A stretch of DNA of 4,099 nt from a virus (taxonomy: Duplodnaviria; Heunggongvirae; Uroviricota; Caudoviricetes): IMG/VR virus record IMGVR_UViG_2531839622_000025. One strand, written 5' to 3'. The notes below the pieces were generated by a model. It was not told the origin of the DNA. It ran no database searches and worked only from the letters and a program-made list of their open reading frames with translations. Numbering within the stretch: the stretch's first letter is position 1; each line of letters begins with the position of its first letter. Position numbers and translations under genes: made by a program. Below, one piece after another: positions 1,199 to 4,099 of this stretch.

Positions 1199-1360
1199 GC
1201 AACTTAAATGTATTAACTCAGAACGGATCAACACACTCACAACATAGAGTCAATATAGCTGCTCGCTTTGTTCCAGCAAGGATGCCTATTTCTAAGGAAA
1301 AACAGAGCAGAAACATATGGTGTTTTCCTACCTGACATCAGGGGTGGTAAGAATCATGCT

Positions 1361-1388
1361 TTGATAACCAATTGATAACTATTATTAT
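1361..1388 (+). promoter_or_regulatory. Putative sigma70 promoter of the cargo gene (-35 TTGATA 1361-1366, 16-bp spacer, -10 TATTAT 1383-1388)
   Basis: Hexamers read directly from the sequence in an AT-rich 225-bp intergenic region; RBS GAGG at 1414-1417 precedes ATG 1424. Contains a TTGATAAC direct repeat (1361-1368, 1372-1379). Confidence 0.35.
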
Positions 1389-1423
1389 ATTAATCTAACA
1401 CCATTGACATAGTTGAGGTTTGA

Positions 1424-2926
1424 ATGAACAAAAAGCTGTATTTATTCCCAGACTCAAACATTTTTCTACAATGCAAGGACTTGACGCAGGTAAATTTTTC
1501 CGAGATTACTGCTTGTGATGAAGTATGTATCATTATTACAAGGCCCATTCAGCAAGAGATTGACCGCCAGAAAGGGCAAGGTAATTCCCGCCTATCCAAA
1601 AAAGCAAGGAAGGCTGCTAGCCTATTTAATCAAGTAGTTGATTCAACTGACATGACTCTTGTTATTCGTGAACGCTCGCCGCGAGTTTTTCTTACCATGG
1701 ATCTAAGCCTGAAACCATGTGAACAGTTATCTGAACAATTGGATTATCAGGAGGCCGACGATCGTTTTGTTGGTATTGCGGCAGGGTATTGCGCTGACGA
1801 TCCAGATTCGGAGGTGGCAATCATTACCAATGATAGCGGTCCACGTTTTTCAGCAATAAAACATAATATAATCTGCTATAAAGTGCCTTCTTCATGGTTG
1901 CTTCCTGCTGAGCCAGATGAAAAGGATAAACAAATTAAATTGCTGGAAGCTAAGCTGAAGCAATTCACTCAGTCTATGCCCGATTTCAGCATTAAAGTAG
2001 CCGATGACGAGCAATTAAATATTGTACTTCCTTATTATACAGCTTTATCTGAATATGAAGTTGATAATTTGCTTTGTCAACTAACGGATGCATTCCCATT
2101 GGTTACAAACTTTGACAATGAACAAACTACCCCACAATCACTAGAAAAAATCATCAAGTCATTTAGTCAACAGGAGTATTTCCCTGTATCAGCAGATGAT
2201 ATTTCTCTTTATAAAGAAAAACATTATCCACTTTGGAAAAAGCAGTGTGAAGAAATACTGAAAAACTGTCATACTCATATTAATCCGAAGGCAATAAAAT
2301 ACCCGCTGTCGTTTTTATTACAAAACACAGGTTATACTATCGCTGAACGTGCTGTGGTAACATTTACAGCAAAAGGAGATTTTCGTCTGTGTGGATTTAA
2401 TTGGGAGATAATGGAAGAGCTGACTGAAAGCAAAAGGATTGACCTACCTTCAGCCCCTACCGCCCCCAAAGGAAAATGGCGTAGTGTATGTGGCGTAACA
2501 GAAAGAATGCCTTACGCTTGGGGAGCTTTGGAAACACCGCTATCCAGTATAATTTCAAAAGAAATTGGTCCTTTGTTATCTCTTACTCCAACAGAAAGGG
2601 ATAAAAACGATTTTTATTATAAAGAAAAGAGAAATGAGCCAGTTCAAGTTGTATCGCTGGAATGCGAAGAGTGGCGTCATCAAGTCAAAGAAGAAATATT
2701 CCCGTTGTTCGTATATACAGCCAACAAACCAAAGAAAGTGAATGGTGCAATTGAGGTGAGAGTTGATGCAAATAACCTTACCAATCCGGTCATTAAAACA
2801 TTTAAATTAAAAATAACTATAGAAGAACATAGTGCATTTTCAACCATAACAGAAATGGTGCAGACATACATTCAAGAGCAGAAGAAAAGACAGAAAAGTT
2901 CTATTAGCGCACAAATCAAAACATGA
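1424..2926 (+). CDS. PIN-like nuclease domain fusion protein (N-terminal PIN fold, ~350-aa C-terminal domain of unknown function); candidate anti-phage / abortive-infection cargo gene
   Basis: 500-codon ORF with good RBS. N-terminus LYLFPDSNIF (D10), QQEIDRQ (E45), EADDRFVGIA (D112/D113) and AIITNDSG (D137) fit the four-acidic-residue PIN signature including the C-terminal T-x-D motif. Visibly AT-rich compared with flanking D and ogr. Lies between D and ogr, which are adjacent in P2 as I recall it. Confidence 0.8.
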   Translation: MNKKLYLFPDSNIFLQCKDLTQVNFSEITACDEVCIIITRPIQQEIDRQKGQGNSRLSKKARKAASLFNQVVDSTDMTLVIRERSPRVFLTMDLSLKPCEQLSEQLDYQEADDRFVGIAAGYCADDPDSEVAIITNDSGPRFSAIKHNIICYKVPSSWLLPAEPDEKDKQIKLLEAKLKQFTQSMPDFSIKVADDEQLNIVLPYYTALSEYEVDNLLCQLTDAFPLVTNFDNEQTTPQSLEKIIKSFSQQEYFPVSADDISLYKEKHYPLWKKQCEEILKNCHTHINPKAIKYPLSFLLQNTGYTIAERAVVTFTAKGDFRLCGFNWEIMEELTESKRIDLPSAPTAPKGKWRSVCGVTERMPYAWGALETPLSSIISKEIGPLLSLTPTERDKNDFYYKEKRNEPVQVVSLECEEWRHQVKEEIFPLFVYTANKPKKVNGAIEVRVDANNLTNPVIKTFKLKITIEEHSAFSTITEMVQTYIQEQKKRQKSSISAQIKT

Positions 2927-3034
2927 GGGTGTACTCAAATAATACAATGCTATAGTAAATCTATAAGTGCATAACTATTTCCTGATCTTTTCCCAAAATA
3001 GATGACAGGATAAAAAACATTCCAATCTTTTACA

Positions 3035-3069
3035 GGCTTTGGATAAATCGTATCAAAGCCTATTTCTTC
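3035..3069 (+). terminator. Weak terminator-like hairpin downstream of the cargo gene
   Basis: ggctttg (3035-3041) / caaagcc (3054-3060), 7-bp stem with a 12-nt loop, followed by tatttcttc. The T-tract is imperfect and the stem is short. Confidence 0.2.
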
Positions 3070-3110
3070 AAGAGTTAAATCACCGCTTTTCGCTCGAAAC
3101 GGACTGGCTG

Positions 3111-3139
3111 TTGGAGTATGAGCCAGAACAACTTAGAAT
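3111..3139 (+). promoter_or_regulatory. Putative ogr promoter (-35 TTGGAG 3111-3116, 17-bp spacer, -10 TAGAAT 3134-3139)
   Basis: Hexamers read from sequence; RBS aagggagg at 3157-3164 precedes ATG 3170. P2 ogr is known to have its own promoter. Confidence 0.25.
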
Positions 3140-3169
3140 AGCCCCTGCACTACGTTAAGGGAGGTCGCT

Positions 3170-3430
3170 ATGTTCCGTTGTCCGCTTTGTGGCGCATCAG
3201 CCCGCATCCGTACCAGTCGTCCGGAAAATGATTCAAACACCGTGCGGCAAAAGTATTACCAGTGTAACAATCTAGAATGCGGCGTATGCTTCTCAACACT
3301 GGAAGCTTTTCATAAATTCACATCGAAACACGCCTCCGGCGTTCACTCTTCAGAAGGTATCCCGTGGCATGAGCTGCCAGCTTCACACAGGGGAAACAAT
3401 CAGATGAGTTTGCCTTTGCCTCAAAATTAA
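3170..3430 (+). CDS. ogr: Ogr/Delta-family zinc-finger late transcription activator
   Basis: 86-aa ORF starting MFRCPLCGASARIRTSR...YYQCNNLECG; Cys-X2-Cys...Cys-X4-Cys arrangement and N-terminal MF.CPLC...ARTSR match P2 Ogr / E. coli OgrK as I recall them. Strong RBS. Located downstream of D as in P2. Confidence 0.88.
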   Translation: MFRCPLCGASARIRTSRPENDSNTVRQKYYQCNNLECGVCFSTLEAFHKFTSKHASGVHSSEGIPWHELPASHRGNNQMSLPLPQN

Positions 3431-3439
3431 CAGGCAGAA

Positions 3440-3468
3440 TTGCCGGAGTAACAAAAAAGCGATAGATT
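3440..3468 (+). promoter_or_regulatory. Putative promoter of the hok-like transcript (-35 TTGCCG 3440-3445, 17-bp spacer, -10 TAGATT 3463-3468)
   Basis: Hexamers read from sequence; predicted start near 3475 coincides with the 5' element (3475-3483) that is complementary to 3819-3827. Confidence 0.25.
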
Positions 3469-3490
3469 ACGCGCGGGTGCCTTTCGGCTG

Positions 3491-3703
3491 ATGGTCGGAG
3501 GGAATACCCGAAGGCCAGATGTGGAAAGGCCCCGGAAAACATCTCTGTTTAACCGAGGCCCTAACCGCATTACCTTGACAAGTGAAAGGTTAGCGCCTCT
3601 CCGGAAAAGGAGCAAGTGCTATGTCGCAAAAATCGCTTACGGCCATCACGTTCTGTGTGACGGCAATCCTCATCATCTGGATGTTGCACGGTTCGCTGTG
3701 TGA
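3491..3703 (+). CDS. mok: mok-like overlapping reading frame (translational coupling partner of hok)
   Basis: 70-codon ORF in a different frame that begins upstream of and overlaps most of the hok-like ORF, as in plasmid R1 hok/mok/sok. An alternative GTG start at 3521 is preceded by AAGG. The product is probably not functional as a protein. Confidence 0.35.
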   Translation: MVGGNTRRPDVERPRKTSLFNRGPNRITLTSERLAPLRKRSKCYVAKIAYGHHVLCDGNPHHLDVARFAV

Positions 3704-3761
3704 AATACGGATGAGCTTCTGGGGAGCGGAGTTTGCGGCGTTCTTACAGTGTAAGCAGTAA
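3621..3761 (+). CDS. hok: Hok/Gef-family type I toxin (small membrane peptide)
   Basis: 46-aa ORF MSQKSLTAITFCVTAILIIWMLHGSLCEIRMSFWGAEFAAFLQCKQ: N-terminal hydrophobic helix, SLCEIR and EFAAFLQCK blocks resembling the Hok family (closest in my memory to HokA, ..SLCELHIKQESYELAAFLACK..). RBS aaggag at 3607-3612. Below the length cutoff of the supplied ORF track. Confidence 0.72.
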   Translation: MSQKSLTAITFCVTAILIIWMLHGSLCEIRMSFWGAEFAAFLQCKQ

Positions 3762-3850
3762 GGAAACCGCGACGGGGGAGCTATCCCCCGTCAATCGGTT
3801 GCCAGGGTAAGGCCGGATAAGGCACCCTATCTCACAGATATGAACAACAA

Positions 3851-3885
3851 ACCCGCAGCGTAAAAACTGCGGGTTTTCTTTTTGG
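3851..3885 (+). terminator. Rho-independent terminator (probable 3' end of the hok-like transcript)
   Basis: acccgcag (3851-3858) / ctgcgggt (3867-3874), 8-bp stem with an 8-nt loop, followed by tttctttttgg. Confidence 0.6.
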
Positions 3886-4029
3886 TGCCCTCACCGCCTT
3901 GAAACAGTGATAAGACTATAAGACAAAGCCCGCAATGTAGCGGGCTTACTCCCCTCACCCTCCACTGAATGTGGACACACAGTGGAACGAAGCGGCATAA
4001 GATATTATAAATCAATCAGTTATTGAAAG

Positions 4030-4055
4030 AAAAAAGGCCGCAGAGCGGCCTTTTT
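4030..4055. terminator. Bidirectional rho-independent terminator
   Basis: aaaaaa-ggccgc-aga-gcggcc-ttttt: perfect 6-bp GC stem flanked by an A-run and a T-run, so it can function on either strand. Confidence 0.6.
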
Positions 4056-4099
4056 AGTTAGATCAGATTACTCGTCTTTGGGCGAAGCGTTTTCGACCC

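Follow-up and report, generated by a model that had tools for sequence, protein, structure and literature searches.

The right end of the virus record IMGVR_UViG_2531839622_000025 (Caudoviricetes) raises the question of whether the short locus abutting the late regulator gene ogr is a complete hok/sok-type type I toxin-antitoxin system, whether its toxin depends on a mok leader frame, and whether it belongs to the phage or to the host. The window analysed here is the whole stretch of 4,099 nucleotides, to which all coordinates refer. The preferred reading, with a probability of about 0.85, is that of a hok/sok-type cassette carried as an autonomous cargo gene (moron) by a P88/Xuanwuvirus-like (P2-like) E. 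coli prophage, which is inserted between btuC and ihfA and has the cassette between its ogr and its attachment site. The cassette is ordinary and previously catalogued, and its sole unusual point is that the "mok" leader frame of the window copy is not conserved among relatives. Added here are the firm placement of the cassette as phage cargo with a mapped att core, the coordinates of the unannotated RNA parts (promoters, tac, ucb, dcb, fbi and Sok) and a 46-aa Hok subfamily without conserved mok. The significance beyond correct annotation is small, the toxin gene being in RefSeq and the peptide catalogued.

The Hok toxin

A first-pass annotation of this DNA had proposed a 46-aa Hok-family peptide behind a good ribosome-binding site, and both points held. 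The hok coding sequence (3621-3761, + strand), an open reading frame encoding MSQKSLTAITFCVTAILIIWMLHGSLCEIRMSFWGAEFAAFLQCKQ, starts 8 nt downstream of the Shine-Dalgarno sequence AAGGAG (3607-3612, + strand), and the Pfam Hok/Gef profile search that had been suggested as a check gave 29.9 bits for HOK_GEF (PF01848; E = 4.1e-7, gathering score 22), with residues 7-44 aligned to positions 5-42 of the 42-position profile. PHROG 251 was matched with an E value of 1.3e-22, every one of the 67 homologs is named Hok/Gef, and the window protein equals RefSeq WP_000078916.1, annotated 'Hok/Gef family protein'. Hok/Gef proteins are about 45-55 aa long, with one N-terminal hydrophobic helix that contains C..T, an L-C-E motif, a downstream E and a C-terminal Cys or Tyr. 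All of these are found in the window peptide as the hydrophobic stretch L6-L22, C12/T14, L26-C27-E28, E37 and C44, which fit the conserved positions C16, T18, L30, C31, E32, E41 and 48 of the published logo. Relative to three close copies hok has 15 synonymous and 0 non-synonymous differences, the pooled pN/pS is 0.46, and the ORF is under purifying selection. PADLOC matched neither Hok nor the neighbouring PIN protein.

Among the known systems, the toxin of plasmid R1 hok/sok (parB), the paradigm type I system, is 39% identical to the window Hok over 31 aa and has 52 aa, whereas the window toxin has 46 aa with a hard-coded C-terminal Cys. The hokW-sokW system of the Stx2 prophage Sp5 / VT2-Sakai (PMC8621323) is likewise prophage-borne, but its carrier is a lambdoid and not a P2-like phage and HokW is a 51-aa HokD-like peptide (MKQQKAM...). 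PHROG 251 groups HokW with the window protein as 'MokW-like host killing', a label that was rejected here, the protein being a Hok toxin and neither Mok nor HokW. The closest named chromosomal paralogue is hokA/sokA of E. coli, with 43% identity, and the HokA equivalog NF007290 was the best NCBIfam match, its 34 bits being far below the cut-off of 89.

A Hok catalogue (bioRxiv 10.1101/2025.08.07.668861; 2026 preprint, Escalera-Maurer et al.) already lists the exact peptide, as entry 72_1621 of its Table S2, and the Stx-phage variant (L007) is one residue (L22 for V) off entry 72_1589. These two entries represent the high-abundance cluster 72 and were picked for toxicity tests; HokA was assigned to another cluster, 93_1378. 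In this preprint, 42 of the 45 homologs tested were toxic and the three named as non-toxic are entries other than 72_1621, and toxicity of the exact window peptide is taken as reported there. The catalogue covers coding sequences only, with Mok, Sok and the mRNA ends stated there to be unresolved; the available text of the preprint does not describe the ogr-adjacent position in P2-like phages. By RefSeq annotation and the preprint catalogue together, the toxin gene of the locus is already known.

The hok mRNA and its alternative folds

The transcript had been outlined at first as a locus of about 410 nt with a promoter roughly 10 bp past the ogr stop and a downstream intrinsic terminator, and this outline was borne out. 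The sigma-70 promoter predicted by reading the sequence (3440-3468, + strand) has a −35 TTGCCG at 3440-3445, a 17-nt spacer and a −10 TAGATT at 3463-3468, and begins 10 bp after the ogr stop codon (3428-3430). Relatives in unrelated settings (Stx phage, IncI1 plasmid, Salmonella prophages) likewise have a TAGAwT −10 spaced 6-7 nt from a downstream GGGTGCC, and hokA shares this arrangement with TAGAAT followed by GGGTGC and an fbi GCACCC. A strict consensus promoter scan reported neither this promoter nor that of Sok. The predicted full-length mRNA (3475-3884, + strand) extends from the start of the Rfam leader model to the end of the terminator U-tract and comprises 410 nt. Rfam RF01794 (sok / hok leader) matched 3475-3634 on the + strand over its full length (model positions 1-157) with 48.4 bits and an E value of 5.8e-9, which is below the gathering score of 59. 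The terminator (3849-3884, + strand) has a stem of 10 pairs (3849-3876) and then TCTTTTT, and scores on both strands; the region has 5 terminator-like sites against 1.1 expected, and 4 pairs of an 8-pair terminator helix have changes on both sides across relatives. Unlike in R1 it is a separate element, 22 nt after fbi, and it is absent from the Stx-phage copy; the homology of Stx-phage copies is confined to 3454-3827.

At the 5′ end of the mRNA the tac element GGGUGCCUU (3475-3483, + strand) is invariant in 23/23 relatives, and its perfect complement is the fbi element AAGGCACCC (3819-3827, + strand). Exactly two copies of the 9-mer AAGGCACCC are present in the window, one per strand and at the two mRNA ends, where 0.04 copies were expected. 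In the RNAalifold consensus tac and fbi form seven pairs that are 97.5% paired in the 23 relatives with G-U variation only, so the pairing is conserved but has no covariation support, the elements being nearly invariant. For the same reason a comparison of cognate with non-cognate 5′/3′ duplex energies was uninformative (−27.9 versus −26.8 kcal/mol).

Further inside the leader, the ucb or anti-SD box GGCCCCGG (3528-3535, + strand) aligns with AGCCCCG at positions 70-76 of R1 (PMC9841398); its partner is CCGAGGCC (3553-3560) in the full-length fold and tac after truncation. The GAGG at 3555-3558 (+ strand), the positional equivalent of the mok Shine-Dalgarno sequence of R1 and hokW, is located at −66/−67 from the hok ATG in all 23 relatives. 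It is followed by a hypervariable segment of 22 nt (3566-3587, + strand), which the 5′ tail of Sok is predicted to target and which has 3.2 times as many per-site differences among close relatives as the rest of the mRNA. Both the truncated fold and the RNAalifold consensus pair the dcb box GCCUC (3595-3599, + strand) with GAGGC (3555-3559), in an 11-pair helix that is 98% paired. The hok start codon is sequestered in a long-range helix of 3621-3636 with 3729-3744 (3621-3744, + strand; 14 pairs in RNAalifold, 97.8% of cells paired), which was seen in both single-sequence folds. The 3′ stem-loop (3765-3800, + strand), which presumably protects the processed mRNA at its end, has a 9-pair inner helix (3771-3792) that is 99% paired and has compensatory changes on both sides in five of the nine pairs.

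These elements combine in a predicted fold switch. The minimum free energy structure of 3475-3830 (356 nt), the full-length fold, has tac paired with the 3′ end (z = −6.6), and on truncation to 3475-3797 it switches to tac with 3524-3534 plus GAGGC/GCCUC (z = −5.2), the predicted unpaired probability of the hypervariable segment increasing from 0.34 to 0.51. The consensus structure over the 23 relatives was 95.7% paired with 23 covarying pairs, compared to 38-45% and 5-13 pairs in controls with slid partners. With the tac/fbi complement, the fold switch and this conserved consensus, the hok mRNA architecture claimed originally is upheld. Common to R1 and the window are the 5′ tac, the 3′ fbi, the dcb, the GC-rich 3′ stem-loop, a ucb in which the C-A mismatch facing GAGG recurs, and a start codon that pairs with coding sequence further downstream, although the leader of the window is about 27 nt shorter than that of R1 (hok ATG at +147 versus +174).

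The Sok antisense RNA

Sok had been expected on the minus strand within 3500-3620, and a promoter can be placed there, as predicted by alignment to sokW and R1, at 3587-3615 (− strand), with a −35 TTGCTC (3615 to 3610), a 17-nt spacer and a −10 TAACCT (3592 to 3587). It falls in the aligned block AGGTTAGC, where the −10 hexamer and its position are identical to those of sokW; the same hexamer was altered in the promoter-less mutant of hokW-sokW (TAGGTTAGCCTC to CCGGCTCGCCTC), by which the promoter was validated in that system (PMC8621323). R1 has TTGCGC-17-TATCCT at the aligned place, and in both R1 and, by prediction, the window the Sok promoter overlaps dcb and the hok Shine-Dalgarno sequence, the latter coinciding in the window with the −35 of the opposite strand; a Sok-promoter mutation of R1 lies within dcb. 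The Sok −10 site reads AGGTTA or AGGATA in 23/23 relatives, and TAACCT matches 3 of 6 consensus positions. The predicted RNA of about 60 nt (3520-3581, − strand) would run from about 3580 to 3520, both ends being approximate, with a single-stranded 5′ tail, a hairpin GGGCCUCGG...CCGGGGCC(U) and a U/C tail. The Sok-like hairpin folds with −24.9 kcal/mol (z = −3.9), and by alignment the layout is that of the antisense region of R1, a 5′ tail and a long hairpin in both.

The mok leader frame

The overlapping 70-codon mok-like frame noticed at first is indeed open at 3491-3703 (+ strand) in the ORF list, but as a mok it did not survive the comparison with relatives and is judged fortuitous. R1 and hokW have the mok ATG 8 nt downstream of GAGG (GAGG-N8-ATG in hokW), whereas a canonical start (ATG/GTG/TTG) 3-14 nt after the leader GAGG was found neither in the window nor in any of the 23 relatives. 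A leader ORF reaching the hok ribosome-binding site is absent in 13 of them, including P88 and Chuche, and the remaining leader ORFs differ in frame, length (1-79 codons) and stop position. The 70-codon frame itself is common only to the window and L028, a copy with the same variable segment. The search for a conserved mok took in the R1-like frame, every other frame, the position next to GAGG and frames starting from an upstream GATGTGG motif, and none was conserved; K-12 hokA was discarded as a mok reference, being split by IS150 and too decayed. By sequence comparison this is a 46-aa Hok subfamily that appears to lack a conserved mok leader ORF, unlike R1 and hokW.

It could be argued that the locus is nevertheless a canonical hok/mok/sok system in which the frame 3491-3703, or its internal GTG at 3521, is a working mok whose translation opens the hok start and which is repressed by Sok. 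The frame is open in the window with the +1 offset to hok of R1 mok (in R1, mok starts at position 116 and hok 58 nt further on, at 174), and the GTG at 3521 follows a GAAGG Shine-Dalgarno sequence and would give a 60-codon ORF. The sequestered hok AUG and the hok Shine-Dalgarno sequence, which is predicted to stay paired, also argue for the need of some helper. Against this stand the variability and restricted occurrence of the leader ORFs described above, the lack of a start codon at the R1/hokW mok place in all 23 relatives, and the positions of the starts 3491 and 3521 inside the tac hairpin, either upstream of the region where Sok and the mRNA are predicted to overlap (about 3520-3581) or at the very 3′ edge of that region. 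A working mok of this kind is therefore considered improbable.

A tentative proposal, for which the odds are put at roughly one in three, is that the 46-aa Hok subfamily of cluster 72, common among P2-like and Stx prophages, functions with no mok leader ORF at all. GAGG, ucb and dcb would then be kept purely as RNA-switch elements, and Sok would act through decay or refolding of the RNA, or by occluding a ribosome standby site, and not by blocking mok translation. A simple version of such mok-free expression, the direct unmasking of the hok Shine-Dalgarno sequence from a CUCC anti-SD by GAGGC/GCCUC pairing, was unsupported because the mean unpaired probability of that sequence in the partition function rises only from 0.02 to 0.09 upon truncation. 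With no conserved mok and a Shine-Dalgarno sequence that is mostly paired after truncation, the preferred model leaves the activation step unexplained, which was counted against it. If the mok-free proposal were true, there would be a second regulatory design inside the textbook hok/sok family, and the hypervariable 22-nt target would give each prophage a private Sok specificity. Should the absence of mok hold experimentally, the textbook rule that hok is never translated without mok would need a modest revision, and a simple natural system would be at hand for how Sok represses without mok.

Proposed mechanism and role

The working model of the preferred cassette reading is built mostly on homology to plasmid R1 hok/sok and Sp5 hokW-sokW. 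The constitutive promoter (3440-3468) would give rise to a stable mRNA of about 410 nt (3475-3884), in which, as predicted from the sequence and its conserved pairings, the 5′ tac pairs with the 3′ fbi, ucb holds the leader GAGG, and the hok ribosome-binding site and AUG are buried. Slow 3′ trimming to the stem-loop 3765-3800 is predicted to remove fbi, and the trimmed RNA to refold into tac-ucb and the GAGGC/GCCUC hairpin with the variable loop (3566-3587) exposed. By homology, a short-lived Sok of about 60 nt from the minus-strand TTGCTC-17-TAACCT promoter would pair with this loop, and the Sok/mRNA duplex would be destroyed, a task that falls to RNase III in R1. Once the supply of Sok stops, the prophage DNA having been lost or host transcription shut off, leftover mRNA would be translated, and the 46-aa Hok, the toxicity of which is reported in the preprint, would presumably insert in the inner membrane and kill or lyse the cell.

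As for the role, the most likely proposal, though a tentative one, is that the cassette serves the addiction to, or retention of, the prophage. Help with lysis on induction may be a possibility of somewhat lower standing, by analogy with hokW-sokW, whose tested role is aiding phage release after induction (PMC8621323). Abortive-infection defence and the absence of any host-level role are each rated unlikely, at about one chance in five.

That the locus is an inactive relic, with a recognisable sequence but toxin and antitoxin no longer made, as in the hok loci of E. coli K-12, is rated as very improbable. Chromosomal hok loci tested earlier gave no post-segregational killing, K-12 hokA is disrupted by IS150, mok is not conserved, and the prophage copy of strain Z885 carries a frameshift in a replication gene and has incomplete tail-fibre genes. 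The window hok, however, is under purifying selection and intact, as are the promoter, tac, ucb, dcb, 3′ stem-loop, fbi and terminator, all of which are conserved in 23 copies; an identical protein is present in functional phages, and the peptide belongs to the toxicity-tested set of which the named non-toxic entries are others (bioRxiv 10.1101/2025.08.07.668861).

Position of the cassette in the prophage

Whether hok is prophage cargo or host DNA had been left open, with a comparison of empty and occupied sites proposed to decide it. The attR core of 25 bp, AAAGAAAAAAGGCCGCAGAGCGGCC, maps to 4026-4050 (no strand assigned) inside the ihfA terminator, 140 bp to the right of the hok locus, and marks the prophage/host boundary; the identical 25 bp are found at the btuC-side junction of the same prophage, as a direct repeat that bounds it. 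Homology of the window to the empty K-12 site begins only at 4026, and the empty site is without hok. The free phages P88 and Chuche have the same cassette in their genomes, between ogr and int, and ogr-hok forms the right end of P2-like prophages at the ihfA, serS and ytfP sites and also occurs in Salmonella. Because hok lies inside the att repeats and is present in the free phages P88 and Chuche, it is phage cargo, and the comparison of sites places it inside the prophage. An origin as host chromosomal DNA outside the prophage, for which it speaks that hok is the last gene before host ihfA and that numerous hok loci are chromosomal, is ruled out for practical purposes by the hok-free empty site with host homology starting at 4026, the bounding direct repeat, and a cassette that is found in free phage genomes and adjoins ogr at three different attachment sites.

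The carrier of the window cassette is thus a P2-like phage, as opposed to the plasmid that carries the R1 locus, and an enrichment of hok genes in prophages was previously reported. The alignment-based search for related loci gave only 7 species-representative loci, and close relatives of the locus are present in 1,554 of 5,426 complete E. coli genomes.

The hok cassette and the prophage boundary

The hok element of the window is real, ordinary and already known, its toxin being annotated in RefSeq (WP_000078916.1) and in phage records, catalogued and tested; the present analysis adds the prophage boundary, coordinates at the RNA level and the absence of a conserved mok. The ORF (3621-3761, plus strand) encodes the 46-aa Hok-family peptide proposed in the first-pass annotation, and the Pfam search on which that proposal had been made to depend was positive (HOK_GEF, 29.9 bits, gathering score 22; PHROG 251, 80.6 bits). 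The ribosome binding site, promoter and terminator described there were also recovered, as a Shine-Dalgarno sequence AAGGAG 8 nt upstream of the ATG, a promoter TTGCCG-17-TAGATT beginning 10 bp past the ogr stop, and a hairpin of 10 pairs (3849-3876) with TCTTTTT after it. This hairpin is among five terminator-like sites in the kilobase holding hok, against 1.1 expected, and the terminator scan gave none from the ogr stop to the hok promoter and start (3431-3474). All regulatory elements of the locus are intact, and the ORF differs from three close copies by 15 synonymous and 0 non-synonymous changes (pooled pN/pS 0.46). The peptide is identical to entry 72_1621 (Table S2, bioRxiv 10.1101/2025.08.07.668861), a high-abundance-cluster representative picked for toxicity tests in that catalogue, where 42 of the 45 tested proved toxic and 72_1621 is not among the three named as non-toxic.

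The window originates from an E. coli chromosome, with 99.9% matches over 3100-4099 in five genomes, O157:H7 strain Z885 among them, and its ogr-hok-ihfA arrangement was found in 292 of 5,426 complete genomes. Annotation around the best match places a P2-like prophage between btuC and ihfA, in the order integrase, capsid and tail genes, gpD (68-1198), a PIN-domain gene (1424-2926, plus strand), ogr (3170-3430; Pfam Ogr_Delta, 52.4 bits) and hok, and the 3′ end of ihfA (minus strand) crosses the right window edge. Whether hok is prophage cargo or host DNA had been left to a comparison of empty and occupied sites, which decides for cargo. The empty K-12 site (btuC-ihfA) is homologous to the window only from 4026 rightwards, and the btuC-side prophage junction carries the identical 25 bp, AAAGAAAAAAGGCCGCAGAGCGGCC, found at window 4026-4050. 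This repeat is the att core, within the ihfA terminator hairpin; with the core at 4026-4050 and K-12 homology starting at 4026, the cassette stops about 140 bp short of the prophage edge. In the genomes of phages P88 and Chuche, the latter a mud isolate, a cassette about 96% identical to it is found between ogr and the integrase side, and other P2-like prophages have a right-end ogr-hok at serS, at ytfP/yidD and, in Salmonella, at ihfA.

The ihfA terminator hairpin holding the 25-bp att core is rebuilt at attR. The phage arm at 3887-4025 (140 bp, hok terminator to att core) matched neither K-12 nor the sequence after the cassette in P88 and Chuche, and a hairpin within it (3926-3947) has a terminator score on the minus strand. 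Rfam STnc540, a Salmonella sRNA candidate, weakly matched the minus strand of 3970-4099 (30.4 bits, below the gathering score of 38). Between gpD and ogr lies an AT-rich island (1200-3150, GC 0.33-0.44 against 0.51-0.59 in the flanks), lacking in P88 and Chuche, whose single 500-aa protein (ORF 1424-2926, plus strand) has an N-terminal PIN_4 domain and no match in PADLOC or NCBIfam. Homologs of about 490-500 aa, each a single gene, are found in Rahnella, Pectobacterium, Enterobacter and Raoultella at identities down to 28%, and the island gene is a candidate for a defence gene or moron carried by the phage in a variable slot between D and ogr. Upstream of the window in the same prophage (contig L006, 13792-15067), ParM and a plasmid-partition-family gene adjoin a frameshifted replication endonuclease gene.

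Predicted structure of the hok mRNA

The 157-nt Rfam 'sok' model matches 3475-3634 end to end (E 5.8e-9), but its 48.4 bits fall below the gathering score of 59. As its sense-strand match runs to the hok start codon, it is really a hok-leader model, and the mRNA 5′ end is therefore predicted at 3475. In an alignment of 23 distinct copies from E. coli, E. albertii, Salmonella, Citrobacter and Klebsiella, RNAalifold paired the 5′ GGGUGCC (3475-3481) with GGCACCC (3821-3827) and also gave a start-codon-sequestering helix, a 3′ stem-loop and the terminator. Of all cells in this consensus 95.7% are paired, compared with 38-45% when partners are slid, and 23 pairs are changed on both sides, compared with 5-13 slid and 15.4 ± 1.9 shuffled. 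Covariation is located in the 3′ stem-loop (5/9 pairs), the terminator (4/8 pairs), the tac-proximal hairpin and two coding-region helices. The tac/fbi helix (3475-3483 with 3819-3827) is conserved and almost invariant, so covariation is uninformative for it; the 9-mer AAGGCACCC and its complement are confined to the two mRNA ends, against 0.04 expected.

Single-sequence folding of the predicted RNA reproduces the switch of plasmid R1. When the RNA ends just past fbi (3475-3830), its 5′ end is closed on the 3′ end and GGCCCCG pairs with CGAGGCC (z −6.6); when it ends past the 3′ stem-loop (3475-3797), the pairings are instead tac/AAAGGCCCC and GAGGC/GCCUC (z −5.2). The published R1 pairings tac/fbi, tac/ucb, SD/ucb and SD/dcb recur as a set in the window folds (ucb 3528-3535, dcb 3595-3599), as does the C-A mismatch opposite the GAGG adenine. 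The R1 sequence used for comparison agrees in full with real IncF plasmids (100% over 450 nt) and fits the position numbers that PMC9841398 gives.

A predicted Sok antisense RNA

Sok had been expected on the minus strand within 3500-3620, and a prediction can now be placed there. The R1 minus strand carries TTGCGC-17-TATCCT opposite the block AGGATAGCCTC...GCGCAAGGAG, and a published R1 Sok-promoter mutation falls in dcb. In hokW-sokW of the Stx2 prophage Sp5, the promoter-less mutant has CCGGCTCGCCTC in place of TAGGTTAGCCTC (primer YO-421 against the VT2-Sakai sequence), and antitoxin activity is lost (PMC8621323). The window shares this block as AGGTTAGCGCCTC...GGAGCAAG, giving a predicted minus-strand promoter with −10 TAACCT (3592 to 3587), a 17-nt spacer and −35 TTGCTC (3615 to 3610); AGGTTA or AGGATA stands at the −10 position in 23/23 relatives. 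The predicted RNA, starting at about 3579-3583 and about 60 nt long, would begin with a single-stranded 5′ tail, continue into a hairpin GGGCCUCGG...CCGGGGCC and end in a U/C-rich tail (z −3.9), the same layout as the R1 antisense region. Opposite the Sok tail, the 22-nt mRNA segment 3566-3587 has 3.2 times more differences per site among close relatives than the remaining mRNA. It is where the 5′ tail of Sok is predicted to bind, and it is a likely specificity determinant, hypervariability being expected of a determinant preventing cross-talk among several hok/sok pairs per cell. Sok in the window is a well-founded prediction.

Absence of a conserved mok

The 70-codon mok-like frame of the first-pass annotation is indeed open (3491-3703), but it is not conserved: only copy L028, which has the same hypervariable segment, shares it, and it is open solely because of the particular sequence of that segment. 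In R1 and hokW the mok ATG lies 8 nt after GAGG. The leader GAGG stands at −66/−67 from the hok ATG in 23/23 copies, and an ATG, GTG or TTG follows 3-14 nt past it in 0/23. No leader ORF with such a start reaches the hok Shine-Dalgarno sequence in 13 of the 23, P88 and Chuche included, and ORFs that begin in the upstream GATGTGG motif differ from copy to copy in frame, in length (1-79 codons) and in where they stop. For want of a conserved start or leader ORF, mok was not accepted as part of this locus; Mok prediction was not attempted by the catalogue authors (bioRxiv 10.1101/2025.08.07.668861). The hok AUG lies within a conserved helix. Simple direct unmasking of the hok Shine-Dalgarno sequence is unsupported, since it is predicted to stay mostly paired after mRNA truncation, its unpaired probability rising from 0.02 to 0.09.

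Function and distribution

The mechanism proposed for the window locus follows from homology. Its own promoter and terminator and its location right at the prophage end are arguments for retention or addiction, and a further one is that solitary or tandem hok cassettes persist by attachment sites without adjacent P2-type ogr or tail genes. R1 hok/sok reportedly lowers T4 plating, and hokW-sokW is reported to aid phage release upon induction. Since the scan showed no terminator between ogr and hok, transcription continuing out of the late tail operon and ogr during lytic growth could yield 5′-extended hok transcripts and flood the cell with hok RNA.

Close relatives, at 80% identity or above, are present in 1,554 of the 5,426 complete E. 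coli genomes, and every one carries the annotation 'Hok/Gef family protein'. Stx phages carry an 82%-identical copy cut exactly to 3454-3827, promoter to fbi, and plasmids hold further copies. Complete cassettes stand in tandem, three by serS in record L031 (2067-3438) and two each in the Salmonella records L022 and L023, adjoining attachment sites where annotation shows neither a P2-type ogr nor P2-type tail genes alongside; such arrays look like scars from hok-carrying prophages that integrated and decayed time after time. Hok of the E. coli type, 72-98% identical, was also seen on contigs assigned to Planococcaceae MAG, Vagococcus sp. and Xanthomonas pisi (L008, L009, L012), probably through assembly contamination or mis-binning. 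Two PLSDB 'plasmids' of 1.2-1.4 Mb, CP061244.1 (H37) and CP061270.1 (L031), look like chromosome fragments, and CP061270.1, the record inspected, carries the core chromosomal genes serS, rarA and lolA.
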